Origin: Vermamoeba vermiformis
Lineage: Eukaryota
Assembly: GCA_045837725.1 (NCBI GenBank)
Contig: JBEWZL010000003.1
Coordinates: 124,001 to 188,000, forward strand
Length of the DNA: 64,000 bases
Reading direction: 5' to 3'
Position numbers and translations under genes: made by a program. Of the stretch, positions 3,538 through 45,544 are shown piece after piece (position 1 is the stretch's first letter; each line of letters starts with the position of its first letter). The notes under the pieces were generated by a model that was not told the origin of the DNA, searched no databases, and saw only the letters and a program-made list of their open reading frames with translations.

Positions 3538-5932
3538 ATGGAACACGAATATTATTTTAATATTGATATCGTTCCAAGTGATATTTGGAGGCTGATCTTC
3601 AAACAATTGCGAACAATGACAGATCTTCGTTCTTTCAACTCGATCAACAAATCATGCCATAATTTCAGCAAATACTACATGCAAAAGCAAAAATTATGGC
3701 TTGGGATATACAGATCTCGCTTTGGATTGGCTGACACGAAATTTGTTTCTCCGATCTTGCCTTCAAAACTGTTTCATCTCAAAAAAATGCTTCAGCCAAG
3801 CCTTAATATTAGCAAAAATAATATTAACTTCAATCAACCACTCAAGATAGTCGTTATTGGCGATGGTAAATAGAAACGCAAAACGCGCGCGATAGTTTGA
3901 AACGATCGGGCGGCACAGGTCATTTATAAACCGTTGATAAAATAGGCGGAATAGGAAAGACATCATATACAAAACTTGTTTCTGGTGGGCACGTAAGTAA
4001 TAAGCAGATCTCGACAGAAAGTATTTAATTAATTAATTATTTTTTTCTTTATATCAGGTCGACAAGCGCTATATTCCAACGGTGGGCTGCGAAGTACATA
4101 AATTCACTGTCACTTCAAAATTACGACAGTTCCAAATCGTTCTTTGGGACACAGGTACACGAGTCTCGATCCATTAAAAAAATTTAAATATACTAACAGC
4201 ACTATTTCAGCTGGTCCTGAGAAATTTGGGGGGTTACGAGATGCCTATTAGTAAGTATTTGTAATTATATTATCGGTTATTAACATTACGCAAAGCATTG
4301 GCGCGGTTGGAGCGATAGTTTTATCGGATGTGACCAGCAAAATCACCATCAATAACATTCCCCATTGGCTGCGAGATATAAGGTAATGTTTATTTATAAG
4401 TAATCTAATGACGTAGTCTAATGAAAAATTAACAGGCGTGTTTGTGAGAATATTCCAGTTGCCGTTTGCGTCAACAAAATTGACACGCACATTGAAGATC
4501 CAAAACCAAGTCTTATCACTAGATTTAGATCGGCAATAACTATTGCGTGTAAAAAGAACGTGGTATGTCTCATAATAATTTTATTAATCGATTGTACGGT
4601 CGTTCTTACATTATTGTTTGGTCAGATGTTCTGCGAGATGTCAAACTGGGCCAAATTCAGCGTTCATGAACCGTTGATATGGATTCTACAGCAGCTGATG
4701 GGGTGAGTAAAATTCATACATAAATGTTATTATAAGTCTATTTATAGATGAGATTTATTGACACGAAGTTGTAGGGATGACACGCTCGAGTTGACATTTC
4801 CAGAAATGGTTAGCGAGAGACACGGGGTGGTCAATGCGGACATGATGAACGCGGCATTAAAAGCACGAAGTAAACTACTGGAATATCACATTGAAGACGA
4901 AGATGATTTTACTGGCGATCTTATTCTGACGACACAACAAGCTACTGACGCTTCGAAGGCGTTTTACGCAAAAAAAACGCAGAAAAAACGCAAAGTACTT
5001 GAAAACGTGATTCAATCGTGCTCACCACGAGTAAAAAATGTGATGGAAGCGTTGTTGACAGGTGTCAGAACTGGACCCGTACTCAGCACAAAAAACCGTA
5101 AGAATACTCTTAACTCTTAATACGATTATTATAGCTAATATTTAATGCACAAAAGATCATCCGTTGCAACAGCCATCGTTGTTATTCGTTGAAGGCCTCG
5201 AATGTCAAGAATTTCATGCCATCGAAAAGTTCAACTTTGTGCAACCACTGCTCGAGTTCTACAAACAACACGAAGACGCAATCATCATGGAGACTCAGAG
5301 CTTGATGGGACTTAGTACGTGCATAACACTACACGTGATATTATATGATAGTAACTGTTCTCTGTGTGCTTCAAGCAGGTGGTCTCGATGACATGACGTC
5401 ATCAGTCAATGGCTCGTGGAAATCGTTCTACTTTGTCGAGTCAGGACAAATCAATCGCACGAGCGCTGAAACAGCACCGTTGTTGACGCACATGCTGCGT
5501 GGTGTGTCTTCGCTGATGACATGTAGCTTCGGATACGCGTACATTTCGATCCTCGGACCACACTCACACATCACTCCTCATTGTGGCCCATGCAACATCA
5601 AGTAAGCACTCGGACCTATATCATAACGCATACTTATTGGTGCAATTAGACTGCGGTGTCATCTGCCGTTGATCGTGCCAAGTGAAGGGTGCACAATCAG
5701 AGTCGGATCCACGACCAAATCATTCAAACAAGGAGAGGTATTGTACTATTATAATTATAGTAATTTAATGGCATGCTCATGCACTATTTTTTAGCTGCTG
5801 ATCTTCGATGATTCGATTGAACATGAAGTGCGTAACGACAGTTCCTCACCGCGTGTCATTCTTTTGTTTGACATTTGGCACCCTGATTTGACACTCGATG
5901 AAATCAACAGCTTCAATACATACTTTTCTTAA
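3538..5932 (+). CDS. F-box / Ran-like GTPase / aspartyl-asparaginyl beta-hydroxylase fusion (copy 1)
   Basis: Spliced GT-AG exons give F-box-like IDIVPSDIWRLIFKQL; GDGGIGKTS; YIPTVGCEVH; WDTAGPEKFGGLRDAYY; RVCENIPVAVCVNKID; LMGDDTLEL...IEDEDDF (Ran-like tail). The same open exon (4775-5097) continues toward the AspH-like HITPHCGPCNIKLRCHLPL...FDDSIEHEVRNDSSSPRVILLFDIWHP. Confidence 0.85.
4618..4802. repeat. Near-identical inverted copy of 23958-24142 (exon + intron of F-box-Ran paralogs 1 and 3)
   Basis: Visual alignment shows ggtcagatgttctgcgag...aaaattcatacataaatgttattataagtcta...gttgacatttcca shared, including the intron. Confidence 0.85.
5019..5840. repeat. Near-identical inverted copy of about 27487-28306 (AspH module including introns)
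   Basis: ORFs 5164/5345 (+) and 27967/27720 (-) are almost identical; the introns also align. Confidence 0.92.
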
Positions 5933-6125: not shown

Positions 6126-7950
6126 TTATTTCAACTTTGCGTGGTACAAGTACGGCATTTGCTCCATGAGCTCTGTACCGTATTTCTGGTCAAGAAATGC
6201 TAGGAAATAAAGCCGTTGAAGTGACGTAAGGTGAGTGAAGCATTTGTACGGTAAATTGGAGCTCGAAAACACTTCCAGCGAGGTTAAATTTTGCAGCGCT
6301 GTCAACGAAATAATCTTTTCCGTTGATTTCACGTGTGTTATACTTAAGCTCTCTAATGTCGTTATACGGACTAAACTTTGCCAAAATTCTTCTTGTTGTT
6401 CGTTTGGTGCTTGTAACGTTTTCAATGAAAGTCGTTCAAAAACTTGGGGAATAATATCTATTTGGAATCTGGTGTCCAATCGGGTCAATTTTGACAGTGA
6501 AGAAAACGTTTCGAACATTTCGGATGTAATTGAAGGCAGCTCTAGACTTTCCAAATTAGGCAATTTTGAAAAGTCAACGAATGTCTCCTGAAAAACGTTC
6601 TTCGTTTGATATGAATCGATTTTGAGTTTCTTCAGTTTGTGCAAATTTTTTACGCATGTCAAACTTGCACGTACTGTGTTTGTGAAAACCTTGAGATCCG
6701 TCAATTGCGTCAAATTCCCGATAATTCCATAATCGATTGGAACTCCATCATAATCAGAAATTTTTAGGCTTCTGCAGAGCTGTAAATCGTGTGATATCGT
6801 CTATGCTATTTGTCGCTGTAATTGAGACTCCTAATGACGTCAAAGTGACAGGCAACAACTTGACGTAATCGAATGGTCTGTTGCTCCGAATGTCAAAGTC
6901 TAATAACCTTGATAATGCTGTCAAAAACTCTAATGCGTCAGTGGGATTTTCTTCTCCAAACATTGGATCTAAAACCAAACGTGTCAAATTCGTCAACGAA
7001 GTCCAGTGACGTGTTACATCTAGCTTAAGGCAGCCATTAACGGTCAAATCTTCCAGGGCTAATTGACCAATCCCTGTCAAGTACTCGACGTAGTCAGTCG
7101 GATCTCCAATAATCAAGGACTTTAGTGCTGTCAATGCGTACAGCGGGGGCTGGATGTCATCCATTGACGAGATCCACAGCACCAACTCTTTCAATCGATG
7201 AGCTTGTGCAAGTGATTTTGTATCGTCTTTATTGCGGCTGTTTAATAGCATTACTGAAAGATATGTCAAATGACTGATACTTGGAATTTTTGAAAAATCG
7301 TCAAGCGATCCGAGGTGCAGATGTTGCACTTTGGTGTTCGAATTTAATGCTTTGACTGCTTCTGCGATATTTGCTTGGTTTAATTCTACATAAGTGAGAT
7401 TATGAAATGATGATAAGAGCTGAGAATAATTGCTATGAAAAAATTGCAAGGACTGTAGATTCGTCAATCGAGTCAGATCGGACATTAACAGGATTTCTTC
7501 CCCTGAATAATTTGTATCGCAAGATATTTTGGTAATATTCGTGAGCGCTGACAGGTGATTGATGGCTTGAGGTGTGAGATCAATTGTTTTTGTGAAGGTG
7601 AGGCTGATTGGTTTGTCGTATCTTGACAACGTCTGAACAATCTCTGGCATCATTCTCGATCGTGTAAAATACAATGTAAAAAAAAAAGAAATCAAACAAG
7701 TGGGGAGATGATTGGTTTGTCGTATCTTGACAACGTCTGAACAATCTCTGGCATCATTCTCGATCGTGTAAAATACAATGTAAACTGAGAATAATCAATA
7801 ATCTCAAATAATCTGGTGCATGTTTGACGAAGATATCGTTTTGATTTCTCATCCGTGCAAGAGTTGATAAGTTGAATTATCTCAACTGGTAATTGCTCCT
7901 AAAATTATTATTAGAATTATTAAAATATTTTGGCTTTTTATTTATACCAT
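6126..7950 (-). pseudogene. F-box-like + LRR protein, disrupted by a +1 frameshift (~6771) and a 104-bp duplication/insertion (7605-7784); may be assembly error
   Basis: ATG-only first exon, intron, then EQLPVEIIQLINSCTDEKSKRYLRQTC (F-box-like) and LTxLTNLxxL repeats. N- and C-termini are similar to the 25427-27214 gene. Confidence 0.75.
7605..7784. repeat. Perfect 76-bp direct repeat (7605-7680, 7709-7784) with a 28-bp spacer
   Basis: tgattggtttgtcgta...aatacaatgtaaa occurs twice. Confidence 0.95.
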
Positions 7951-8273: not shown

Positions 8274-11200
8274 CTAGTCAGTGAAGAATTTAACACAAGA
8301 TTGTAAATACTTTTTGAATACTGAAGTCTCTTCTTCATCCATGCGCATATAAATCTCTTCTTTTTCTAATAACGGCTGTTTAACTGTTCCTATTCTCTCC
8401 CATTTCTCAGTACTTTCGAGCAGCGGATCTGGCAATGAAGCTCGTAGTCGCAACATATAGTTAGTTATCGGCAATACGATGCTCCATGGCAGTTTCACCA
8501 CGGACTCTAACTCCGTTACCAAATCGGGGAATTTGTTCTGATCTAAAAATAGCTTGATCATGAGTCCCATTTCTTCACTGAACACCATCAAATGTCCGTT
8601 CTTTCGCAACGCTCTGTAGACCGATTCAGCTCGCTCGTAGTCCTTTCTATCGATCAACAAGGCCAAAGTGTACGTGTACAATCTGCTGCCCAAGACCTCG
8701 AACGGGAACATGGCCGTAGATTTGGTGTAGATCTCCCACAACTCGTCCATGGCTTCGAGCAAGAACAACGATTCAGCGAACGCGCCCATGATCGCACGAG
8801 TCATTTCCAACTTCTTAGAGAGCATAGTGCCAAAGAAGCCTAAGATGGACTTGGCGTCGTGCCCTTTAACGCAGATCTGGCACGCAGTTTTGAACGCGAT
8901 AGAGTCTAACTGAACACCGTTCTCCAATAGCATCTTAAAGGCTGTGATTGCTCTGTCAGGCTCATCCTTCGAGAAATAGAAGATCAAGCGAGAATAAGCT
9001 GTCGAGTCCATCTTATGACCTTATAATTTAGTTTAGCACCTCGATCCGAAGATAAAAAAAAAAAAATAAACACTATCGTCATCTTTGTACACAGTCGTGC
9101 CACCTAAGACAGACAGAACTGCGAAACACCAATGACTTAATTTGGTAATAATAGTTCCAAAAAAGATCACTCTGAACGAAAATTGGGATACGAAAAATTT
9201 TTGACCGCAATTGTTCAACGCGAAAAAATCAATTATGGGACTAAAGATGAAGTCGTAGAAAAAGATCTATTCTTACCTTCTTGTTGAATTTGATTGACTA
9301 AATTATGCAGCGCTTTCAAATTGCCACTTTCTCCCAAAATGTCAATCATTTGAGTGTAGATCTGAATGTTCGGCTTGATCGACTGAGCAGCCATTTCGTC
9401 CAAAATAGTCTTAAGGTTCTTAGTAGTTCGATTATCGACGTTGTGCAATATGCAACTGAACAATCGCACGAAGGTGATGTCAACGGGCTTGATTTTCGCT
9501 GACTTCATTTGGTGGTACCAGTGCATAGCCTCTTCGAAATTTCCTTCTTTGGCTGAAAAAGTCACGTGATTAATAACGGTGACACGTGTCAATGATGAAA
9601 ACGCAGCGTAGGTGACTTTACCTTTAGCGCTGATAATGTTCGTGAAAGTGATCTCATTGGGCATTATTCCGGAAGCTGTCATCTCGTTCAAAATACTTTC
9701 AGCCTATAAATATGATTAGTACCCAGCACCTACTATTTACAGTAATGAAGGCACGATATAAATTTAATTTGTTGAAGTAAAAAGGTGCCGAAAAGTCAGA
9801 TCCAAAAAGTTCGAAATTTTGAACTTTTTACCTTTTGATTGGTCAAATTGCCGTGACGTTCCCAGCCCAAGATATAATCGTTGTACATGAGCACGGTGAG
9901 CGGGTATCTCTTCTCTTTTAAGTGGTTCCACAGACCTTCAAACTTTTCGAGACTTCTCTCGCCGTAGTAGATCAACATGACGCGGTACGTGTAATCGTTG
10001 AATTGAACGTCGTGCGTTCGCAAATAATTCGCGACTTTCTCGAAGTTCTCGGAATCGCTGTTACGCGAGAACAACGACAACAACGCGTTGTACGTATGAA
10101 TGCTGAGTTCCATCTTGTCCTGCATTCCATCGAAGAATTCCAACGCTTCTTTGGTCATTCCAGCGCTGCAGTACGCGCTCAAGATCTTGTTGTAGGTCGG
10201 CAAGTTCAATTGCAAACCTTCGTCACGTGCCTTGTTGAACGTCTCGCGCATCAGTTTCATGTCACCACGTTCGATGGCCATGGAGATAATACGCTGGTAG
10301 GTCACGGCTGTAGGACTTGTGATTGATTTGTACAGTGCCATAACTTCATCGTATTTGCCCATCGAGTGCAAGATTGCCAGCAACGCGTTCTGAATGTTTG
10401 TGCTCATTGGCAAGCCGCTCTCTTTGAACTGTTTGTAAACGTCGAGTGATTTTGTTACATCTCCACGTCTGAAATAACTCCACATCATTGCTCCATAAAC
10501 TCCGCCTAAAAAAGATTTCATGAATTAAAATAGATACCGAAATTGATCGAAAAATTCTAATTAAATTCTAAATATTATACGCAACGAGTATACTAATTGT
10601 TATTTAATAAAATAGTATTATGAACTCACCTCCGACTTTCATATCGTTAGCCAAATCTTTCAGTCTGAAAAAGTCCGCCCAGACCTGATCTGCCTTTTCG
10701 TACTCTTCCATATTCGTAAAGCAATTGATCATAAGCTGTATTAACATTGCCGTCGGTTTCTTGCGCAGCGCTTTCATTTCTTGGTAGATCATGCATGCTT
10801 CTTTGTACTTTCGTCGTTTGAAGTATGCATCGATTACTTGCGTGAAGAAAATAGCACCTGGCTCGAGTGAGGTATCTTGGCGTACCATATCTAACACGTT
10901 TTCGGCTTCTTGAAATTGTTCGGCCAAGATCAAGTTCTCGATCACCATTACATAGACACGCAAAGTTACTTTAGCACCTATAGATAAGAGTTAGTATACA
11001 ATTTCATATTATTTATAATTGTTTGGTAATTAACGAACAAAATGCGGTTGAGCTACAGATCAGATCGCGAGACCAACTTTACCTTTCGCTTTAGCCTCAT
11101 CTAGTGCTTCCAAAGCCTTATGATACTTGCTAGCACCCAGTAGGTCTTTGATACGTTCATATAATTTGTGACTGAAGGCTAAATCCGGTCGGTTAGAACG

Positions 11201-11634
11201 GAAATTAGTAGGGCGAATGTCCAGATCGGTGTTGTTGTTCGTTGGTAGCAGATCATCAGCGAACTCTTTTCTGAACTCCTCTGTTAGTCTATCGACCTTT
11301 ACTGCTCGTGTTTGCAAGCTCCTTGAAAATAGAGAAACCTTTGGGGCTGTAGTTGATTGGGTGGAAATTAATCCAAGGGCTCGTTTGGCTGATCTGGCAT
11401 TAAATGACCGGGAACAATTCTAAAATTAATTTAAAAAATTAGTAAAAATATATGGAGGCCGTTTGTGCAGAATTATCGCGGTTGGATAACTTAATTGAAT
11501 GTTGTAGATAATTCATGAATAAAATTTGGTTTACGAATCTGCCATAATATAATTCAAAAACTACATTTATACATTTGACATTAATTGTTATTATCATTTA
11601 TAACGTGGACACTTACCCAGCTAAGTCGTAACAT
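8274..11634 (-). CDS. Pentatricopeptide repeat (PPR) protein, probably mitochondrial
   Basis: Many 35-aa PPR motifs (TYNKILSAYCSAGMTKEALEFFDGM; PNIQIYTQMIDILGESG). First exons give MLRLSW|NCSRSFNARSAKRALG, an R/S-rich presequence-like segment. Confidence 0.9.
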
Positions 11635-12078: not shown

Positions 12079-14196
12079 TTATTTATATTTGCCTACAACT
12101 GATTGAAGCATAGTCGCAAAGTTAAATTTGATACCTGGATACTTCAAGTACGAGAATATATGAGTCCACACTTCGATCGGAAACTCGATCTGCCCTCCTT
12201 GCTTGTGAGTTCGAATGATATTGTGGCTCAGCACCAGAGCGTTATTAATTCTTTCTTTTCTTAGTCTTTGGTTCTTCGAAATCAACGGTTCAATGCCATC
12301 AACGAGGCGTACGTCGTAGCCTTCATAAGCCGTAACAGATTCGTTTACTTGCAACGCCTCTATCAGCAATTGTCGACATGGTTCTATTTCCAAATGTGGC
12401 ATATCACAATATTGTCTGCTCTCCAATGAACGAAGTGTCGTATTAGCTTCGAGACCATTACACAGATGCGTCATGGCAAGAATATTCTTTGCTCCGTCCA
12501 ATACTAATCTCTCTAGTGTCGTATTAATGCTCAAAAGTCTTTCAAACGATCCCTCTGTATCATAGCTAATCGTTGTATAAGCTAAAGTTGTCAACGTAGG
12601 GTGATGTAGAAGTGACTCGCAGATCCACTTCGTTCCAATCGTGCCGATCGAATTGCCGGTCATATCCAGCGAAGTTAAGCTGACGTTATTTCGAAGACCT
12701 CGTGACAAGCTTTTGGCACCGTTATCTTCAATCGAGCAGTCGGATATGCGCAAGTACTGCAAGGTCGTGTTTTGCTGCAACGTGGCTGAAAAATCATTGC
12801 ATACAGTTAAGTCCATCATATTGGCTCCAAACTCTAGTGACCTCAAGCTGCTATTGACCTTCAATGCTTCCAGCACTAGGTGAGAATCTTCGTTGTTTCC
12901 AAAAAATTCGAGTTTTGTGAGAGTGCTGTTGACGCACAAAAAATCCTTGAGCTGTTGGCTCTGTATGTCACTGAAGTCCAACACTGATAAATCTAGCGCT
13001 ACTAATGTCGTGTTATGCTTCAGCGCGTTGAATAATTGTTCGCTTGTGTCCTCCGTCATATTATCAGTAGTCAAGCCGAGATCAGTCAACGTTGAATTTG
13101 TGGCCAATGGCTCAAAATGAATAGCGCCCCATTGAGCTGCAAAGTCGTAGCATTCGTTAACATGAAGGGTTCGTAGCGTCGTGTTGACTTTCAGCGCCTC
13201 CGAAATTTCTTGTATTGTTACGTCGGGCTCTATTAAACTGCTAGAGTCAAACTCCAAAGAAGTTAACGTGTGATTGTTCTTCAATATTTTTCCGAACAGC
13301 GGAAATATTTCTGAAAACGTTAACTTGAGCTCCGTCAGCGTTTTGTTGCTAATCAACGAGTCACAAAATTTTCGTTCAATGTATCGTGGATCGGGCTGCC
13401 CATTAATTTTCTCTTCTTGTCCAGTCTTTTGCTTCTTTTTGGGGGGTTCTGCTTCGTCTTCGAGGTCTTCATCATTTTCGATGTGTGAAATGGCTAACTT
13501 CTTCAGCGAGGTGTTAACGCCGATCGCTTCTACAATGTAGCGAAGAGCCTTAAAAGACCCAAATTTGGCTCCTTCCATATTGAGGTCTTCAAGTGTAGTA
13601 TTGATTCGCAAAGATTCGCTGAGCGCCAGTGCAGCTTCTTCCGTCACATCGATATACGTCGCGTCTAATCGTTTTAAAGTCGTATTATACTTCAATCCTT
13701 CGAAGAAATATTCAAATCCTTCGCTGTATAATGTATGACCGAGCGTAATAGTCTCCAATGTCGGATGCGTTCGTACAAGTCGGCCCAAGCACTTGGCTGC
13801 TTCAACTGGTGCGGCGTCGAATATGCATTCTCTAAATGAGAGTGATTTAATGCCAGGGCTTAGCTGCAGCCCTTGACAGAGTAGATCCAAGTTGATTCTT
13901 AGTTTGTCTCTGTATCCGGACTTTTGTTCGAGCCTGACGTTCTCCAAGCCAACAACTTTGAAAGGAATATTCTGTATTATTGCGTCGAGTACTTTGTTAC
14001 TGCCGTCGACCAAAAGACACTGAAATAAAATTTATCAGATTCGCGTTTAAGGTATTAATACCTTAAAAAATAAATGGATGCCGTATTGCGATTGAACATA
14101 ATTTTATAATTTAATTACTAATTCAATTAATGACATTAATTGCAGTATTTAATAAGACATCAGTTTGCTTACTTGATTTTCATCGTTTGCTTCCAT
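12079..14196 (-). CDS. RNI/NLRC3-like LRR protein with a C-terminal F-box-like motif
   Basis: 28-aa LRRs (ALKxNTTLxxLxL); C-terminal EFPIEVWTHIFSYL; short first exon MEANDENQ (14173-14196). Confidence 0.85.
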
Positions 14197-22237: not shown

Positions 22238-23554
22238 ATGGATGATATACTAAGCGTAGACGATCTGCGCAAACCTTCTATTTTGCGTGCAGCAGTAGAT
22301 TCGGTTGCGAATCAAACTATCAATCCTCACACTGCCCTAAATATTCTAGAAAAAATATTACAGTGGTCTATGTTGACAGACAAGGTATAATATTGTAGGT
22401 TAAGTTCAAATAATAATTTATTAGCTTTTTTTAATTTTACTTTGTTAGATCTACGATGTCAAGGAAACAGGGCTGTATAATCCCCGGAATAATCTTAATA
22501 ATTAAGAGCAACACGAAATCGATTAATACAAATCAATTCAGTGCCCAAATAATCCTCAACTGCTTAAAGATCCTTCTGAACTGCAGCAAGCAGGACGACA
22601 TTACGGAGATTTTCGGAGATTTCAAAACAGTCCTAAACACGATAAAAAATCAATGCAAAGATAATTTACAAGTCGTAGAAGCAATTGACGCTTTGCTAAT
22701 GTCTTTAACGTCTCAGAACGACTCGAAAAGTACGTGCAAATATGATCCATAGTAGTATATGAAGTATTAATTATATTTATTTAGTTAGGAGGTTTACTTT
22801 TGTTCATGAAAATGACACAAAGCAGATCTCGCTTCGGATCGGCGAACTTGAACAACTTGGCGTTGGCTGGAAAATTTGGGAAGGCGGATTAGTATTAGCT
22901 CGATGGATACAACGAAATAAGCGAAATTTCACTAATTATAGATGTCTAGAAGTTGGTGCAGGTACGTACTTGGTACATCTGCGATCCGTACAAAAAATCA
23001 GTTTTTCCTTTACATCGAATCGAAGGCTCATATTTTACTATATTTAGGGTGTGGACTATCAGGGCTATTATTAGGACATTACTGCAAAGAAGTAGTGCTA
23101 TCAGATTACACGCAAAAGCTAGTTGAAAATTTGAACGAAAATATCAAACTTAATCCGGAGTTAAATAATACGACAGCCGAATTATTAGATTGGATACAAG
23201 TCCATAAGAAAGAAAATGTACCAAATTTAGGTTTGTTAATAATACAAGCAGTCGGATCTTGTCTAATTTTCCATTTTAGGAAAATTCGATGTTATCATTG
23301 GATCTGAGGTTCTTTATTTAGAAGATGCTTCAAAGTCATTAGCGCATACAATAGACACGTATTTAACACCTAATGGAGTAGTCTACATATTATCGATGCT
23401 TCAAAAATTTCGATTAGGCTTTGATCCGTTTGTGAACGAATTGAAGACGCTTGGATTCACTGTTAATATCGCCCTGGTGGACGAAGACCTTATTAAAGAC
23501 TTTAGTGATGAGAATAATTGGGTTCTAATCACAGCAAATAGGCAGCGCGAATAA
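22238..23554 (+). CDS. SAM-dependent protein methyltransferase (family 16/METTL21-like) with a helical N-terminal extension
   Basis: GVGWKIWEGGLVLARWI, CLEVGAGCGLSG, VVLSDY, FDVIIGSEVLY. Confidence 0.85.
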
Positions 23555-23867
23555 ACGAAATCATCATGTGTTTTTGTCCTTGATTGACGCGAGACGTGGC
23601 CTTCGCCGAACCATCACTGACAAATTTTGAAGGCTCTAATGCGAAACGACACTTGTAGACCTGCTAGCTGCTTGCCTCTAATGTCCGCAATCGCCAAATT
23701 TGGAAATATCAATTTACCGTTAAAAAATTCGAGCAATGGTATTGGTGGACCTCTCGTCGGATCATGCACAAAGCCTGCATATTGAAGGTCAAATTGAATA
23801 GTTGTAGAAACTATTGGCAGCCGGCTTTCAGATCTCGAATTATGAAGCAACGTTTGTGTAAGCTCTA

Positions 23868-25192
23868 TTAACATAATTTATTGTGTTGCCTTCGTATGTT
23901 TATAGCTTCTCGTATTAATTCTAAATTCACTTGGCCGTGCAATTCGTTTGACATCGGTGGAAATGTCAACTCGAGTGTGTCATCCCTACAACTTCGTGTC
24001 AATAAATCTCATCTCCAAATAGACTTATAATAACATTTATGTATGAATTTTGCTTACCCCGTCAGCTGCTGTAGAATCCATATCAATGGTTCATGAACGC
24101 TGAATTTGGCCCAGTTTGAAATCTCGCAGAACATCTGACCAAGCGAAAATGTGCCAGCGTCAACCACAACATCGCAAACATTACAATTCATTTAATCTTA
24201 CCACATTCATGCGCTTTTTCATCATTCTTACGAGAATGCCTATCTCTCTAGTGATTTTTTTCTTGTCATCGACTTCGCTGTCCTCTTTGAAAGGCAGATC
24301 CAGTTTGTTCATGCACACGGCAATCGGCAAGACATTTTCGCTGCAATAGCGACTGGTTGTATATTATTATTATTTATCTCGATTTAACATAATATACTTA
24401 CCTCCCACTGCGGATCCAGTTTGGAACGTTTCTATTGGTTGTCCTATTTGTGTCACAAAAAACTATAAGGCCGGAAGCTCCCAAACTAATCAATGAATTA
24501 GTATTTGCATATTTAGAAGAAAATTATTCTTACTAACATAAATCCCTTTCTTGTCCAGATCTCGTTACACCTGCCAAGCGGATTTGATTAATTATGCTGC
24601 TTATTTTGGCTAAGATTATTACCTATATCCCAAAGATCGATCACAAAATCTCTATTGGGTGATTTTATAACGAATTGGAACTGATTGCTGCCCATTGTAA
24701 CCTAAGTTCGCCGATCTGAGCATTGATTAGAGAACCGGCTATTAATAGCATTTACCGTACTTGATTTCCTGAAACTAGCCTTGAGAATGTTGTTTTCCCT
24801 GTTTTTCCTGTTGGTTGGAAGCCTAGTGAACCACATCCAGCGATCGGAAAGATCTACGAAAGTTCTTACCGTCACCAATGACAATGATTTTAATTTGCTT
24901 ATTGAAATCGAATATCTCTGCTTAGGCTAAGCAATGGTTGCATTTGTTTGAGCTGGAATAGTTTTGAAGGCAAGATCAGCGAATAAATATTCGGGTAATT
25001 CATTGCAAATCGAGATTTGAGTGCTTCATGATATAATTTTTCTTGTTGCATCTCGTGTTTACAATAATAATTGCACAATTTACGGAGAAAGAGGAGAGTT
25101 CGACGATCTGTCAAAGCGCCCAGCAGATTGAAGATCAGCCTCCAAATATCTCCCGGTACGCAGTCAATATTTAAATAATATTCGTGTTCCAT
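23868..25192 (-). pseudogene. F-box / Ran-like GTPase (copy 3), no hydroxylase domain; frameshift near 24911 (pseudogene or consensus error)
   Basis: MEHEYYLNIDCVPGDIWRLIF; after the shift KIIVIGDGKTGKTTF, IDLWDIGVTRSGQE, RNVPNWIR, CMNKLD, LTGDDTLELTFPP...HNKLC*. Confidence 0.75.
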
Positions 25193-25426
25193 ACTATTGT
25201 ATATATGCGAAGTTCCACAAACGGTCTGATCACTGAACACGAAAAATTAAACTTCTAAAGCTTCTCATTTGCCCCCCGGTTTTTTTGTGTTTTTTTTTTT
25301 TTTTCTCGGGGCCCCCATATTTGTGACTTGAATCAAGGAAAAAAAATCTATCAACGTTTTCTTGTCTCGATCCTTGGCAGCTTCACACGACACCAGAATC
25401 GATTATAAATTTTCCAAAAAAATATC

Positions 25427-27214
25427 ATGGATATGGATATTATACCGCAAGACTTATGGCCAATAATAACCAGCTTTATGGACGATAAAACAAAACGGCA
25501 GATGAGACTCGCAAACACAAAATGGTTCAACGCGATTAAATACAATAACTTCAGATTATATTTTACACGAAAAGAAGATGTAGCAACAATAACAGACCGA
25601 TTATCAAAATATTCTTGGCCGATCAAGGTAGAATTTAAAAAACCAAAAATTGATGATGCTTTAGACGTTATTCAGCACTTGTCTAAGTTAACCAACTTAA
25701 CGGAATTATATCACGATGAACAAGTTGAGTGGCAGAATTCTATTTCGCAAGATCAGTGGATGCATCTCTCAACTCTCACGAACATTGAAGTTTGGTCTTT
25801 TTTAAACAGTGGACCAGTACCTATGTCGTTGCCACTTTTCGGCGTAACAGTACCTAACGAACTATTGTTTAAATTCCCCAAATTAACTCACTGGCAAGAT
25901 TCTAAAGAAGCGGTTAAATATTTGACCAATTTAAATTCGTTGCATTTGGATTCCGATCAGTCATACGAGCGTAATTCAGAATCAAATAAGGCAACGTGGA
26001 TCGTAGCATTATTAGCAAATCCGGAAAAATTAACCCAACTCCACGTCGGCACATCCATAAACCAAGCAGATGGCTACGAAGTTTTGAGCCGTTTGACAAA
26101 CCTGAAAGAACTTCACCTTTCAAATAACTGCAATGATATTACAGACCTCTCTCAATTAAAAACACTAGAATATTGCGACCTTTCTGGCCGATTCATTCCG
26201 TCACTTAGAGCAAACACGAATCTGACGAAATTGCGGATTTGGATTCCAGCTGGCTGCTCAATAGACACAAACCAGTTAACAACTTTGACAAATCTTCATA
26301 GTTTAGAGATGATAGTGTTCCCAAATGATGAGCCAGTACAATTCAACTTTTTGTCGCATCTGATCCAACTCCGAAATTTCCGTTTGGACAATAGATCCGA
26401 CTACAATAATACCTCTACACATATACCTTCATCAATATACCAATGCTTATCACCAACATTGAAAGTTTTAAAGACATCAGGCGATATTTCATTGGATCTA
26501 GCAATGATTACGCATCTGACGAATCTCGAAGAACTCAACAATCCAAGACATATTCAATATTTATCCGTATTTACCAAGTTGAAAGTATTGCATGGTTTCT
26601 ATTCACACGAAGATCAGGATTGGCGAGCACTTGGAAAATTGACAAAATTGGAACAGCTCGTCTTTTCAATGAACAATTTTAGTGGCAATATTTCAGACTA
26701 TAAATTACCAGAAATTTCAGGACTTGTTAAACTAAGAAATATGTCATGGACCTCTGATAGCCTTCCCAACCAGTTGATGCACGGATTGCAATTTCTGACA
26801 GATCTGCAAAGTTTGAATATCCACAGCCGACAGCGCGATGAAAAACCTCTAGTTCATTGGGAGGTTTTCAGCGAATTAACGAATTTGACAAATCTGTCTT
26901 TATGGATTAAAACAGATTACGATGAAATGTTTTGGCGAAACCTTGCTCCATTGACGAACATTCAAAGCCTAAAAATATTTCCTACCAGCATTGGTGGCAA
27001 TGATGGAATATTGACGATGACAGCTTTCAGAAATTTGACAGAATTGTTCATTGAAAATGAACCGGGTGATGATTTCGATGGCTGTCATTTTACGGCACTA
27101 ACTTCACTCCAATTAATTTCATTCTATGGCATCGGCAACAGATTAATACACAAAAAAGAAACGTTATTAAAGACTATGCCTCACTTATTGTGGTATAACT
27201 ACATGGACATTTAA
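25427..27214 (+). CDS. Intronless F-box-like + LRR protein
   Basis: 595-aa ORF; IIPQDLWPIITSFMDDKTKRQMRLANTKW followed by LSxLTNLxxL repeats. Confidence 0.88.
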   Translation: MDMDIIPQDLWPIITSFMDDKTKRQMRLANTKWFNAIKYNNFRLYFTRKEDVATITDRLSKYSWPIKVEFKKPKIDDALDVIQHLSKLTNLTELYHDEQVEWQNSISQDQWMHLSTLTNIEVWSFLNSGPVPMSLPLFGVTVPNELLFKFPKLTHWQDSKEAVKYLTNLNSLHLDSDQSYERNSESNKATWIVALLANPEKLTQLHVGTSINQADGYEVLSRLTNLKELHLSNNCNDITDLSQLKTLEYCDLSGRFIPSLRANTNLTKLRIWIPAGCSIDTNQLTTLTNLHSLEMIVFPNDEPVQFNFLSHLIQLRNFRLDNRSDYNNTSTHIPSSIYQCLSPTLKVLKTSGDISLDLAMITHLTNLEELNNPRHIQYLSVFTKLKVLHGFYSHEDQDWRALGKLTKLEQLVFSMNNFSGNISDYKLPEISGLVKLRNMSWTSDSLPNQLMHGLQFLTDLQSLNIHSRQRDEKPLVHWEVFSELTNLTNLSLWIKTDYDEMFWRNLAPLTNIQSLKIFPTSIGGNDGILTMTAFRNLTELFIENEPGDDFDGCHFTALTSLQLISFYGIGNRLIHKKETLLKTMPHLLWYNYMDI

Positions 27215-27389
27215 GAATAAACTTTTCATTTTCGCAATCGAATGTTTTTTTCTAGAGAAAAAGGAAATAATCGTAAGACAACAAGTAAACGCCATAATAG
27301 TGTCTAATGTACCTCTTGCTTTATGGCCAAGAGAACCAGGTTAGTGAACGACGACCCAGAGTCTGTGATGAGATGTATATTTGACGTCC

Positions 27390-29732
27390 TTAGCGCTTAA
27401 AGTACCCCCTAAAGCTGTTGATTTCATCGTCTGTCATATCGGGATGCCAGATGTCAAAAACAAGATGGACAGTTGGCGTGTCAGAGCTGTCATTACGCAC
27501 TTCATGTTCAATCGAATCATCGAAGATCAGCAGCTAAAAAAATAGTGCATTAGTATATAATTAATCACTATAATAATAGGACAATACCTCTCCTTGTTTG
27601 AATGATTTGGTCGTGGATCCGACTCTGATTGTGCACCCTTCACTTGGCACGATCAACGGCAGATGACATCGCAGCCTAATTGACCCAATAAGTATGCGTT
27701 ATGATATAGGTCCGAGTACTTACTTGATGTTGCATGGACCACAATGAGAAGTGATGTGTGAGTGTGGTCCGAGGATCGAAATGTACGCGTATCCGAAGCT
27801 GCATGTCATCAGCGAAGACACACCGCGCAGCATGTGCGTCAACAACGGTGCTGTTTCAGCGCTCGTGTGGTTTATTTGTCCTGACTCGACAAAGTAGAAC
27901 GATTTCCACGAGCCATTGACTGATGATGTCATGTCATCGAGACCACCTGCTTGAAGCACACAGAGGTCAGTTACTATCATATAATATCACGTGTAGTGTT
28001 ATCCACGTACTAAGTCCCATCAAGCTCTGAGTCTCCATGATGATTGCGTCTTCGTGTTGTTTGTAGAACTCGAGCAGTGGTTGCACAAAGTTGAACTTTT
28101 CGATGGCATGAAATTCTTGACATTCAAGGCCTTCAACGAATAACAACGATGGCTGCTGCAATGGATGATCTTTTGTGCATTAAATGTTAGCTATACTAAT
28201 CGTATTAGGAGTTAAGAGTATTCTTACGGTTTTTTGTGCTGAGTACGGGTCCAGTTCTGACACCTGTCAACAACGCTTCCATCACATTTTTCACTCGTGG
28301 TGAGCAAGATTTGGTAACAATTTCAAGAACTTGGCGGTTTTCTCCAAAGTCGCTGGTGCCGGTTGATCGGTGCTGACTTCCCGCGGTTGACAAATTGTCA
28401 TCAGAGTCGTCTTCAACGTCTTTAATATGCCGTCGCAACATCTTTTTATGCGCGAAAATTGCTGCTTTCATAATTTCGGGCTCTATTTTGGCTTGCAAAT
28501 CAGACATCAACGGAGGAAATGTCAAATCGAGAGTGTCATTGCTGCAACATGTCAATGTTAGAAAAATAGTCCTATATAGTCTATATTGAAATATTTATAT
28601 TAGTTAGGCGTACCCGGCCAACTTCTGTAGGATCCACGTCAACGGTTCATGAACGCCAAATTTCGCGTAACTAGACATCTCGCAGACCATCTGACAGCGA
28701 TGTTATAACCTCGTATACCTTATAAAACAGATCTTACTATATTATTTTTGCTTGCAAATCTCAAAACAGCAGCAATTCGGTTGACATAATAGCGAAAAGC
28801 ATTATCTGGCTGCAGATCCATTTTACTAATGCAAAGAGCAATCGGAATATCGGAACAAACACGCCTATATTTATAAATTAGACGACATTTATATGCAATA
28901 ACAAATTACCTGACATCTTTTATCCAGTAATTGCGGAAATAACTAAGATCTGACGCAGAAACTAAAAATATTGCGCCAGCGGCTCCAATACTATTGATAA
29001 AATTAGTTTTCGATTAATTAGACTAGGTATTACAATTATCATACTAATAACCGTCGCGCAGCACTCCAAATTTCTCTTGACCGTCTGCGATCCAAAATTA
29101 ATAAAATAAACGAAACAACGAGAGGGTGATTACGTGTATCCCAAAGATCGATATTAAACTCTCTGTCGATTGATGAAACTTTGAAACGGTGTACGCTGAC
29201 ACTAACAGTCTTTAAATAACTTGGCTTTAAAAATTTGGTCAGATCTTGTTGCAGGAGTTACATATACTCACCGTAGAATCGGGTGAATGGCATGATATTA
29301 ACTTCGTAAATGTTGTTTTGCCGGCGCCGCCTGTTAATGGAACTTTGTTTGAGTACTGCGCCAGATTTGTTGTCAACGGGACTTACTCTCGCCAACAACA
29401 ATGATTTTCAATGGCTTATTTGTGTCTGTATATTCGGTAGCCATATTAAGGGATAATCGCTCTATTTGTTTGAGCTTGAACAATTTTGAGGGCAAGATCA
29501 AGGAATAAATATTTGTGCCGTTTAGTCCAAACCGAGATCTGATTAGTCCATGCCATATTCTCTCTTTTTGCATACAATATTTACTATATTTATGCCATGA
29601 TTTATTGACACGGTTGAAAGAGCAAAGATCTGTCAAAACTTGAAGTTCCTTCAAGATCAACCTCCAAATATCACTTGGAACAATATCAATAATATTACTA
29701 ACGAGGTCATAATTAGGATTTTCGTGCTCCAT
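27390..29732 (-). CDS. F-box / Ran-like GTPase / aspartyl-asparaginyl beta-hydroxylase fusion (copy 2)
   Basis: [80 protein letters not shown]...FDDSIEHEVRNDSSDTPTVHLVFDIWHP...FKR*. Confidence 0.83.
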
Positions 29733-29994
29733 GGCATATATCAAGCTGTTAATTAAAAGTACTTTTTTCCTCTTTTTCGGACCCGTTTATGTTCTCTGAC
29801 CGACCAGTCACGTGCTTAAAAAAATTACCGGTAAAATCACCAAAACATTGTTGGGACAGTGGTGCAAAAGCTCAATAATAATGACATACTTATACAACTT
29901 AAACTAGCAGTATGGTTTCAGATCTCCTCCTTTGGATGGGTGGATCATTCGCCTGATCTTGTTTTGAATTGATTTCTTTATGTTATCTGTACAA

Positions 29995-43116: not shown

Positions 43117-45544
43117 TTAAACAATTGCTAGCAAGGTCGCCAAAGCCGTAGCGTGTACCATCCCGATCGACAGAATTGTCGTGCTTGAAACACCCGTCAA
43201 CACACTACGGGATGAAGGCACTCGCGTTGGAGACAACACTGGGGAAGTTGCAGGAGAGCTGGCTGGTACTTGAACGGGTGTATCAGCAAGCGGTGATTTG
43301 TTGGCAGGACTAACGACTGGCTCGGAATTAGGCACACTGATTGGCGCAGCTGGAATACTCGTTGGTGCTGCAACTGGTGAATCATCATGTGTTGGAGAGT
43401 TGAACGGTGTGGCCAAAGGCACTTCAATTTCTGGCGAGTCGATAGGCACAAGTGGCTCGGCAACAGGGCCGTCACAACTGGGTGTATTGCCAGTCGGTGT
43501 CTCAACTGGCGCATCAATTGGAGAGTACAATGGCGGCACGTCAACTGGTGTCGTTTCTGGTGATTCTACAGGCGATTCATTTGCAAGCGGAGTATCAATT
43601 GGGGAGCACTGCTCGGCGTGTCCCAAATAGGCGAATCAATGGGTGGTTCAATCGGATTTGGTTCCGTGAAGGTGATTCTATTGGTAATTCAATTGCAAGT
43701 GGAACATCAATTGGTGTGTCAATAGGAGCACTAACTGGTGAGTCTAATGGAGGACTGATTGGTGAATAAATCGGAGTTGGTTGAGGAGAAGGTTCTGCGA
43801 CCGGGGCAACTGGAGGACTGATTGGTGTAGTTGTTGGTGAATCAATCGGTGTGTCGATGGGCGTTGATTCGGGTGAAGGTTGGGGTGAAGGACTGAGAGG
43901 TTCGGCAACGGGCGATCCATCTACAGGAACATTCGCTGGCGCGTCAGCAGGAGTGTCAACCGGAGTACTAAGAGGTGAAGCACTGAAAGGTGTATTGTTA
44001 ATCGGTGGTTCTGGCGTGTCAACGGGCGTACCAAGTGGTGAGGCTTCGGGTGAATCGCTAGTAGGCGTTTGGTTTGAAGGCGTGTCGGTTGGCACAAAGC
44101 TTGGAGCGTCACTTAACGGTGCTTCAATTGGTACAAATGACGGTGAATCCACTGGTGAATCAATTGGCACGTTGTTCAACGGCACCGAAACTGGAACGTC
44201 AACAGGAGAATTGACAGGTACATTAACTGGAGAATTTACTGGTGGACTGGCAGGTGCTTGAACAGGCGCGGTAACTGGTGTGATTGCAACAGGTTCGTTG
44301 ACGGGAGCGTTTTGGGGACCGATAGATCCAATTGGAGTTTCACAGGTTCTGAACAGGATATTAAAAAACATGAAATTGAACCTTTGCCTGTATATTACAC
44401 TTACATATTCACGTCACACATGCCCGTATCTGGATTGCACGTGTAAGTTTCGCAGCTGGTGTCACACGGACATGAAGTGAAGCACGGTATTGTGTACACT
44501 GCCATAGAGTTCAGAGTTGCGCTTTTAATGCCACCGATTATGTATACTGAGGGACCGATAAGCGCTACAAAAGCGCCGCTCAATGGAGTCGGAAGAGTTC
44601 CGTTGACAGCCCAAGTGTCACTCGCAACGTAATACCGAAGAATGGTCGATTGCAAGCCATCGAAAAAGAAATCTTGATCGTTTCCTCCAAATAGCCAGAT
44701 AGCATCCGATGTAGCGAACCCTCCTGCATAGACTCTCTTCGGTGGGCTTTGAAGAGTTGACCAGATCTGGTTTGACAGTTTTGTCAAGTAAGTTCCAGCA
44801 ACGTAGATCTCGCTGTTCTTAAATACACCCAGTTGGCCATAGATGTTATACAATGGTTTGGAATCGTTTGCGTAAGAGTCCGTAACAGGATCATATATCC
44901 AATGGCCGTAGTTTTGGGTCGGATCGTTCGCAACGAATCCGTTAATGATGTGGATCTTGTTCGTGTCGCTGTCCCATACGCAAGTTGGGGCCAAACGATG
45001 ATAAGGCATAGTGCCATATTCCCATTTCTGCGTTGATATCGTATAAGTACCTCGTACAGCTGAATAGGCCACGCCAGTATAACCACCTAACATTTAACTT
45101 CAGGTTAGACCTTGTCGGAAATTTATTCCGGAATAGCTACCTATAATATATATTAATATACTTACCAAATACGTCAATCTTATTAGAACCATCATATACT
45201 GCACAGGCTTCTTCTATGGTAGATTGATAATTCGGATGTGAAGTCCATGTTTTCGTGCGGACGTTGAATTCGCGCACAGCATTCGTTATCGCATATGAAC
45301 TAATGTTAGTGATACCACCAACGAAGAATAAGGACTCTCCGACAACAGTGCTCGCCGAAAAAGCCACGCCTTCAGCCAAATCTGGTAACTGGACGAAGGA
45401 ACAGGAGGCAGCAGAGCAAAAAACTATATTTACAATCCGTTAATTACTAATAGTAGGCTTTTCCGCTGAAAAAAAGGATTTTCGAAATGAGATCCTGCCG
45501 CAGATCATCTTTGACTTACGAATGGAGAGTAGCAATATCTTCAT
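43117..45544 (-). CDS. Secreted Kelch-repeat protein with Pro/Ser/Thr mucin-like stalk and GPI-like tail (apparent indels ~43600-43670)
   Basis: MKILLLSI|LFCSAASC signal; GG..Y..W Kelch repeats; small Cys-rich motif; [ST]P[IV][DE] repeats; hydrophobic C-terminus. Confidence 0.8.

Follow-up and report, generated by a model that had tools for sequence, protein, structure and literature searches.

The region considered here is a 64,000-nucleotide window of the genome of the amoeba Vermamoeba vermiformis (assembly GCA_045837725.1, contig JBEWZL010000003.1, positions 124,001 to 188,000 of the forward strand; all coordinates below are those of the window), which carries three copies of a gene with a Ran-like GTPase (G) domain. 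An earlier note on this DNA had flagged the interval 3841-4800 for Ran-like motifs with altered catalytic and nucleotide-binding residues, and this interval lies centrally in copy 1, a + strand gene of 12 exons (3538-5932). The exons lie at 3538-3865, 3946-3992, 4058-4154, 4211-4250, 4296-4382 and 4436-4562 (exons 1-6) and at 4626-4702, 4775-5097, 5156-5314, 5379 (or 5376)-5601, 5650-5737 and 5795-5932 (exons 7-12). All introns of the gene are canonical (45-79 nt) and the spliced frame is open over 577 or 578 amino acids, in a window of ~39% GC in which introns are of the GT-AG type. When exon 1 was used to query a collection of 5.8 billion proteins, a single protein among 20 candidates was recovered, a transcript of V. 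vermiformis (EukProt EP00029), whose longer isoform (P0002, 568 amino acids) has the same layout as copy 1. The copy 1 model is collinear with this transcript-derived protein, with 427 of 567 residues identical (75%) and indels at 0 of the 11 exon junctions. Copy 1 is thus a three-part protein comprising an F-box-like head (residues ~1-100), a complete Ran-like G domain with its acidic tail (G domain at ~101-315), and, after a linker, an oxygenase domain of the aspartate/asparagine hydroxylase (AspH) type (~375-577).

The head and the first half of the P-loop are encoded by exon 1 (3538-3865), and the core of the G domain runs from the end of that exon to exon 7 (3859-4702), all on the + strand. 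Within the core are the intron-split P-loop GDGGIGKT (3859-3962), the switch-I Thr within PTVG (4076-4087), the likewise intron-split DTAGP (4148-4218), NKID (4473-4484) and SNW (4641-4649). The last codon of DTAGP, CCT at 4216-4218, places a Pro at the position of Ran Gln69 when aligned to Ran. Exon 8 (4775-5097) encodes the Ran C-terminal helix, the acidic motif DEDDF (4896-4910, the counterpart of Ran DEDDDL) and the linker, which has the conserved SCSPRVKNVMEALLTGVRTGP at its end, while exons 9-12 (5156-5932) encode the Fe(II)/2-oxoglutarate (2OG) oxygenase domain.

Sequence comparisons place the G domain closest to Ran, in keeping with the identity first proposed for it. A phmmer search of the PDB matched P0002 to Ran at E 3e-50 over Ran residues 11-215, a span that includes the C-terminal helix and acidic tail, whereas the best non-Ran GTPase among the matches listed was Rab-35 at 1e-18. 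Pfam assigned both the GTPase (Ras, residues 102-266, 7e-32) and the oxygenase (Asp_Arg_Hydrox, 406-554, 1e-42, 145.8 bits) to this single chain. Copy 1 is ~44% identical to canonical Ran (PDB 1byu, 1i2m), its closest match, and shares with it GxxxxGKT, Y39/T42, DxxG, EKFGGLRD.YY, NKxD, the C-terminal helix and the acidic DEDD motif. It differs in the replacement of Q69 by Pro and of SAK by SNW, in 7-9 added residues after G4, in a basic patch cut from HRKK to ..KK, and in the internal rather than C-terminal position of the acidic motif. Stand-alone Ran is a protein of ~216 amino acids ending in DEDDDL, whereas here the domain is internal to a 577-residue chain in which DEDDF is followed by the linker and the oxygenase. 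On this evidence, the G domains of the three copies are Ran-derived.

Once the short introns were removed, every motif string reported in the earlier note was present, including the GKT retained in all three copies. Copy 1 reads GDGGIGKT (G1), DTAGP (G3), NKID (G4) and SNW (G5); copy 2 reads GESGAGKT, DTHGQ, SKMD and SSY; and copy 3 reads GDGKTGKT, DIGVTRSGQ, NKLD and SNW, the G3 string of this last copy being dependent on the splice model. An alignment to canonical Ran used the Ran portions of four sequences (P0029, P0037, P0047 and P0016; G1 GDGGTGKT, G3 DTAGQ, G4 NKVD, G5 SAK) and placed the strings at Ran G17-T24, D65-Q69, N122-D125 and S150-K152. The switch-I Thr is present in copies 1, 2 and 3. 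The strings given for copies 2 and 3 were thus right, but a further change in the copy 2 P-loop had been overlooked, namely a Ser at Ran G19, the counterpart of Ras G12. Ran G19 is also the site of the GTPase-dead Ran mutant G19V, while Ran Q69L is the standard GTP-locked form of Ran, and a Ser at the G12-equivalent position blocks the action of GTPase-activating proteins (GAPs) in Ras. The two positions altered in the laboratory mutants of Ran (Q69L, G19V) and Ras (Q61, G12) are therefore the ones altered in copy 1 (Q69P) and copy 2 (G19S), with the difference that the substitutions seen here are natural and conserved.

Because Q69 and SAK are changed, because the domain is embedded between two others, and because it occurs in multiple copies, the Ran-like domains of this family are not nuclear-transport Ran orthologues, in line with the earlier note. 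The interpretation given there holds in part: the catalytic Gln is missing from copy 1 and a hydrolysis-dead or pseudo-GTPase binding module is the most economical explanation, but the position of the domain between an F-box-like head and an AspH oxygenase had been missed. Sequence error, which the earlier note had named as a possible undoing of its claim, does not account for the substitution, since the Pro-bearing G3 of copy 1 recurs in an independent transcript assembly (P0001/P0002), in two JGI metagenome proteins and in a metagenome contig (L001).

The other two copies lie on the - strand. Copy 2 (27390-29732) is an intact 12-exon paralog of 582 amino acids with the layout of copy 1 and 11 canonical introns. 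Its motifs lie at 29140-29077 (G1/G3 part), 28827-28816 (SKMD) and 28675-28667 (SSY), and its oxygenase domain lacks the counterpart of human AspH R735 (..SSDTPTVH.., 27479-27465). It is the more derived paralog, having kept the Gln but acquired Ser at the G12 equivalent, His in G3 and Ser in G4. Copy 3 (23868-25192) is a truncated and frameshifted pseudogene: exon 1 carries a +1 frameshift caused by an extra base at 24907, switch I and switch II are shortened, G3 (DIGVTRSGQ, 24629-24551) contains a 4-residue insertion, and the frame ends in ..RRQHNKLC and a stop codon soon after the G domain, with no acidic tail. A tblastn search found no AspH part 3' of copy 3. A Logan contig of DNA run X1 matches 24667-25204 with 0 differences and 0 gaps, frameshift included, so that the extra base shows no obvious sign of being an assembly mistake, with the proviso that the assembly may itself derive from run X1.

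Copies 1 and 2 are 94-100% identical at the nucleotide level, introns included, between 5008-5707 and 27620-28320 (partner coordinates approximate), as against 37-75% in the intervals 5' of this tract (3538-5007). The boundaries are sharp and dS in the converted codons is 0.09, and the tract therefore represents recent gene conversion that has homogenised the oxygenase half. A second, short tract at 4648-4767 (the end of exon 7 and intron 7) is 95% identical to copy 3 (partner ~24000-24120). Tandem duplication, pseudogenisation and gene conversion in the oxygenase half have together shaped the family. The intergenic space between copies 3 and 2 holds a 601-amino-acid frame on the + strand (25409-27214) with leucine-rich repeat (LRR) matches (LRR_14, 4e-13), the start of which (MDMDIIPQDLWPII...) weakly resembles the Ran-AspH head (tblastn E ~0.1). 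Further LRR-type frames stand beside copy 1 at 6126-7794 and 12079-14031 (both -), making the locus LRR-rich. The segment 5' of copy 3 (25212-25425) consists of an A run and low-complexity sequence, at which word depth in the DNA run peaks at 3942, compared with ~690.

Beyond the window, relatives with the same architecture were few. When P0002 was used as query, 117 of the 120 near-length matches listed proved to be ordinary Ran or gene models containing it, the rest being P0001, P0003 and P0004. An exhaustive search of representatives gave 37,075 matches at E <= 0.001. Of the 150 listed, 10 were run through Pfam: partial chains with both GTPase and AspH domains were identified in P0130 and P0205 (Rhizamoeba saxonica), one protein (P0225) combined AspH, F-box-like and Ras domains, and the remaining 7 had several GTPase domains but no AspH. 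Further members came from cluster look-ups, namely P0259 (Rhizamoeba, 470 amino acids) and two JGI proteins, P0263 and P0270. In a metagenome scan, a whole head-Ran-AspH gene was present in 1 of the 80 AspH loci kept (L001), and among viral contigs the P0002 query gave 15 pattern matches and 0 relatives. The family is therefore small, being known so far from Vermamoeba, Rhizamoeba and a few metagenome contigs. Two transcripts show variation within Vermamoeba itself, as P0003, which is labelled as another isoform from the gene of P0002, departs from P0002 across the tail and linker region, while P0256 has a different head; the Vermamoeba transcriptome therefore contains at least 2-3 further expressed paralogs, or Trinity chimeras of them.

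Loss of the catalytic Gln is a shared character of these proteins. A Pro occupies the Gln69 position in 6 of the 8 members with a visible G3 (copy 1, P0002, P0270, L001, P0263 as DTASP, and Rhizamoeba P0259 as DPAGP), with copies 2 and 3 as the exceptions, and G5 is SN[W/Y/H] in 7 of the 8 and SSY in copy 2. The two genera concerned, Vermamoeba and Rhizamoeba, are placed in separate classes of Tubulinea. Switch II (EKFGGLRD.YY) is nearly unchanged in the Vermamoeba-type members. In the Rhizamoeba protein P0259, residues ~17-30 read ..VSIKYTLYDTS.. at the position of the P-loop and GxxxxGKT is gone, so that this protein seems incapable of binding nucleotide, barring an error of transcript assembly. 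Since the P-loop is absent from the Rhizamoeba member, nucleotide cycling would not be essential to the family. Between copies 1 and 2, dN/dS (Nei-Gojobori) was ~0.18 for the Ran core, compared with 0.32 for the head and 0.27 for the tail and linker, ratios that are rough as dS is saturated in this comparison. These results run counter to the view that the domains are degenerate differently in each paralog and hence diversifying: the same Pro and the same SN[WYH] for SAK recur as far as Rhizamoeba, the most aberrant copy is simply a pseudogene, and dN/dS is low in the Ran core. The pattern across the family is more readily described as a conserved, probably non-catalytic state than as free decay or wholesale diversification.

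The oxygenase half retains the residues expected of an active site. Exon pieces of copy 1 matched PF05118 at 47.1 and 41.1 bits (Pfam cut-off 22.6), and the C-terminal part of P0002 matched human AspH in the PDB at E 6e-32 to 1e-31 over ~190 residues. Mapped through 5apa_A, copy 1 and P0002 both retain counterparts of human S668, H679, R688, H690, H725 and R735. According to a published account, S668 and R735 of human AspH bind the C5 carboxylate of 2OG, H679 and H725 are the sole two metal ligands, roles are likewise given for R688 and H690, and the patient variant R735W is considered likely to disturb 2OG binding (PMC6817910). The family thus resembles human AspH (PDB 5apa, 5jqy) in its PF05118 domain, two-His metal site, RXS 2OG site (R735, S668) and H690/R688, but differs in having a Ran-like domain as N-terminal neighbour, in a Lys-to-Tyr change at K666, and in the missing R735 of copy 2. 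Pfam on P0002 identified GTPase and oxygenase families only and no tetratricopeptide repeat (TPR), in an analysis that did not include a search for membrane anchors or signal peptides.

The head of copy 1 is helical, with an F-box-looking core (IVPSDIWRLIFKQL..DLRSFNSINKSCHNF; residues ~10-50, IVPSDIWRLIFKQL...NKSCHNF). We call it F-box-like, and it may bind Skp1. For residues 1-100, the best ESM Atlas matches scored 0.79-0.85 and F-box clusters 0.79-0.83, all under the lead level of 0.9, and an AlphaFold2 model of the head from 4 sequences (mean predicted local distance difference test score, pLDDT, 56.4; predicted template modelling score, pTM, 0.31) was too poor for a fold search.

The same three kinds of domain recur in a second, separate family. 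P0225, identified above, had 7 matches at E <= 1e-10 among 8000 candidates, and all four metagenomic members (P0225/P0260, P0272, P0273 and P0274) combine AspH, an F-box-like domain and a Rab1-like GTPase. The F-box-like domain is Pfam-significant here (E 8.6e-10, 3.4e-9 and 2.6e-11, with P0273 counted on its precomputed Pfam entry), and the GTPase matches Rab1 at 3e-42 and has a CaaX-like end. Three of the four carry WDTAGPERF, in which Gln is again replaced by Pro, together with GLKAG at G4. The genes are GC-rich, intronless, continuous open reading frames of 550-715 amino acids. This family differs from the Ran family in domain order (AspH, F-box, GTPase), in its Rab1-derived GTPase, in the detectability of its F-box and in its CaaX-like end. 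Because the same three kinds of domain and the change from Gln to Pro recur with another order and another GTPase, we argue that the combination of AspH, F-box and locked GTPase is likely to be functional.

The existence of a parallel family built on Rab1, itself a classical effector target, also bears on the idea of decoy or bait evolution raised in the earlier note. In a sharpened form of that idea, a locked Ran would mimic active Ran and trap Ran-binding factors of pathogens or viruses, the F-box and oxygenase would mark them, and the paralogs would diversify under host-parasite conflict. A tandem birth-and-death family with one pseudogene, conversion tracts and paralog-specific changes at functional motifs would fit such a history, as would the interleaving of the locus with LRR genes, and effectors of intracellular bacteria that infect amoebae are reported to target components of the Ran cycle (PMC3777869, PMC7157520). 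A further account (PMC6178616) yielded no passage concerning Ran or Rab1. However, the Ran core is under purifying selection overall, the supposedly degenerate residues are conserved across classes of Tubulinea, the P0002 search of viral contigs gave no relatives, and the oxygenase is left unexplained, and we therefore consider this account very unlikely. Its broader form, to which we give equally little credence, would be that amoebae possess SCF (Skp1-cullin-F-box)-coupled 'GTPase baits', in which hydrolysis-dead Ran (at this locus) and Rab1 (in the parallel family) are wired to an F-box and an Asp/Asn hydroxylase. If it were true, whatever grips the active-state GTPase would be hydroxylated and/or ubiquitinated, and a protist would thereby have cell-autonomous immunity of the integrated-decoy type, with Ran and Rab1 as GTPases manipulated by intracellular bacteria and giant viruses of amoebae.

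Contact between the Ran and oxygenase domains was modelled in a fold test of P0002 residues 95-330 with 365-568, with GTP and Mg included and 3 controls. The complex had a median score of 0.66 and the best control one of 0.08, in a setting outside the calibration of the test (pieces of one chain, ligands included and alignments unused). Within that calibration, 51 of 78 solved complexes attain a score of 0.66, as do 2 of 108 mismatched pairs (39/65 and 2/126 for eukaryotes). Runs shared at least 70% of contacts, and the pLDDT of the partner was at least 89. On the Ran side, the modelled interface comprises residues 133-139 (IGVEVHK, equivalent to Ran 43-49 in beta2 after switch I), switch II residues 164-165 (Ran G74 and L75) and residues of beta1 and beta3; on the oxygenase side, it comprises residues 373-381 (QPSLLFVEG), which form the conserved first strand, and residues 559-568 at the C-terminal end. 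The model supports docking of the Ran switch face on the oxygenase.

The reading that we favour, with somewhat more confidence than doubt, is that a non-cycling Ran module has been built into a hydroxylase/SCF adaptor. The module is taken to be non-cycling because the nucleotide motifs and switch II are kept while the residue that positions the attacking water is lost; it would bind guanine nucleotide without hydrolysing it, and hence would not cycle. Instead, the module may be a fixed partner to the oxygenase, in a structural or regulatory role, with its effector face (switch I, beta2 and switch II) docking on the QPSLLFVEG strand and C-terminal end of its own oxygenase. In such an arrangement, the Ran module would occupy the place that the TPR substrate clamp has in human AspH, and the F-box-like head would probably link the unit to Skp1/SCF.

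Several observations weigh against this reading, beginning with the extrapolation of the fold test noted above. Nucleotide binding, lost hydrolysis, Skp1 binding and hydroxylase activity are each predictions from sequence, and an AlphaFold2 model of the whole of P0002 (7 sequences; mean pLDDT 45.2, pTM 0.34) carried no information on domain packing. The counterpart of K666, which in human AspH contacts the substrate Asp, is Tyr in this family. With regard to the head, Pfam gave no F-box match in copy 1, copy 3 or L001, and in copy 2 it gave matches below threshold (F-box-like PF12937 in the expected place with E 0.0019 and 18.3 bits, the cut-off being 24.3; PF00646 at E 0.0078), as it did at the expected place in P0256 (F-box-like, E 0.056). 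In hhalign the head falls exactly on the Pfam F-box of P0225 but with a probability of 0.1%, and a head profile searched against PDB sequences had LRS4 (E 0.4) as its sole match, F-box proteins being absent. The remaining adverse points concern the GTPase cycle and transcription.

Rap is a small GTPase without the Gln that is nevertheless reported to be switched off by a special GAP (PMC2265111), and it offers a precedent for a different reading, in which Pro69 would stop only the intrinsic reaction while a dedicated GAP acts in trans, a guanine nucleotide exchange factor reloads the domain, and the nucleotide state toggles the oxygenase or F-box. Such a working switch would explain why G1, the switch-I Thr, DxxG, NKxD and a nearly unchanged switch II persist in 5 Vermamoeba-type members and why the C-terminal acidic switch element of Ran is retained, and since the oxygenase is predicted to touch the switch I/II face, the contact would be sensitive to nucleotide. 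The loss of the P-loop in the Rhizamoeba member and the alteration of G5 in every member speak against it, as does the Ser of copy 2 at a position where it would be GAP-blocking in Ras. We regard a cycling domain as unlikely and retain the non-cycling module as the preferred reading.

Transcription was assessed in three RNA runs that share the species label of the best DNA source, mapped to the stretch 23500-29900 with ~46-48% of each run and with the repeats at 25272-25317 left out. This stretch contains copies 2 and 3, and copy 1 could be judged only through its near-identical exon 9. Between 96 and 120 reads mapped per run, nearly all of them 95-99% alike and lying only partly on the stretch. 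The unaligned read ends, translated by eye, gave KQFQTLTDLR, DDTLELTFPP and GPLIAKNRHPLQ, all of which are P0002 sequence, and the spliced joins ..G|DDTLELTFPP (exon 7/8) and ..GPLIAKN|RHPLQ (linker/AspH) were found in reads of the three runs. Because the read ends carry P0002 sequence with spliced joins, there is a fourth, P0002-like paralog that is expressed, and the fusion exists at the mRNA level. In the same three runs, no reads on 23500-29900 were attributable to copies 2 or 3, the depth on copy 2 exon 9 (3/159 nt from copy 1) was zero, and 8 of 9 read variants differed from copy 1, so that transcription of the copies in the window is not supported by the mapped reads. The LRR gene between copies 3 and 2 likewise had no RNA reads in the three runs, and silence of the copies is therefore indistinguishable from divergence of the RNA strain.

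These expression data bear on whether the copies in the window are relics, decaying while the only working member (the P0002-like gene) resides elsewhere, in which case the motif changes of copies 1-3 would be functionless. Copy 3 is beyond doubt a dead gene, the 2OG-binding Arg is missing from copy 2, no RNA reads are attributable to copies 2 and 3 or fall on the exon that is 98% shared with copy 1, and every mapped RNA read fits the P0002-like paralog. Decay would not, however, be expected to leave copies 1 and 2 open over 12 exons with 11 canonical introns each, with dN/dS of 0.18-0.32 outside the converted tract, and the motifs of copy 1 match the consensus of the family and are of the same kind as those of the expressed P0002. 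In addition, the frame of exons 7-8 is intact in P0159, a 95%-like variant of this stretch of copy 1, and the RNA strain may differ from that of the assembly. That all three copies are functionless remnants thus appears improbable, and a non-cycling Ran module within a hydroxylase/SCF adaptor is preferred for the family.

Comparable designs exist in better-known proteins. RhoBTB combines an atypical Rho domain with a cullin adaptor, and as an atypical, non-cycling small GTPase fused to a cullin-ligase adaptor it is the nearest analogue in logic, differing in having Rho in place of Ran, BTB/Cul3 in place of F-box/Skp1, and no oxygenase. Similarly, KDM2A and KDM2B (FBXL11 and FBXL10) carry both an F-box and a 2OG oxygenase on a single chain, but the oxygenase is a JmjC lysine demethylase rather than of the AspH type, LRR and CXXC domains are present, and there is no GTPase. 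The scheme by which pseudoGTPases are classified comprises class i (PMC12490416) and further classes. Should the proposed link hold, the proteins described here would be a Ran-derived addition to the pseudoGTPases, and the finding belongs among the atypical small-GTPase modules that form part of larger proteins.

Ran ordinarily occurs as one extremely conserved switch that stands alone. In this family, an entire Ran with its tail has become part of a larger protein, with the loss of the catalytic Gln kept across two classes of Tubulinea. The recurrence of the combination in the Rab1-like family provides a hint of the Rosetta-stone type that Asp/Asn hydroxylation, SCF-type adaptors and locked small GTPases may be linked, which would suggest a testable partner and mode of regulation for cytosolic AspH-type oxygenases, whose substrates outside epidermal growth factor (EGF) domains are poorly known. 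A full-text literature search, which did not cover subscription journals or supplementary files, found no description of the architecture or of the DTAGP G3 motif, and the matches listed for DTAGP were papers on dTAG degraders or k-mers.

Elsewhere in the window, frames on the - strand at 981-2154, 8274-11317 and 44401-45093 include P450-like exons (..FLFAGHDTTA.., ..PFSKGQRDCIG..) and pentatricopeptide repeat (PPR)-like helical-repeat frames, recognised by eye, as well as a Kelch-repeat frame (Pfam 4e-8), all of them ordinary eukaryotic genes.

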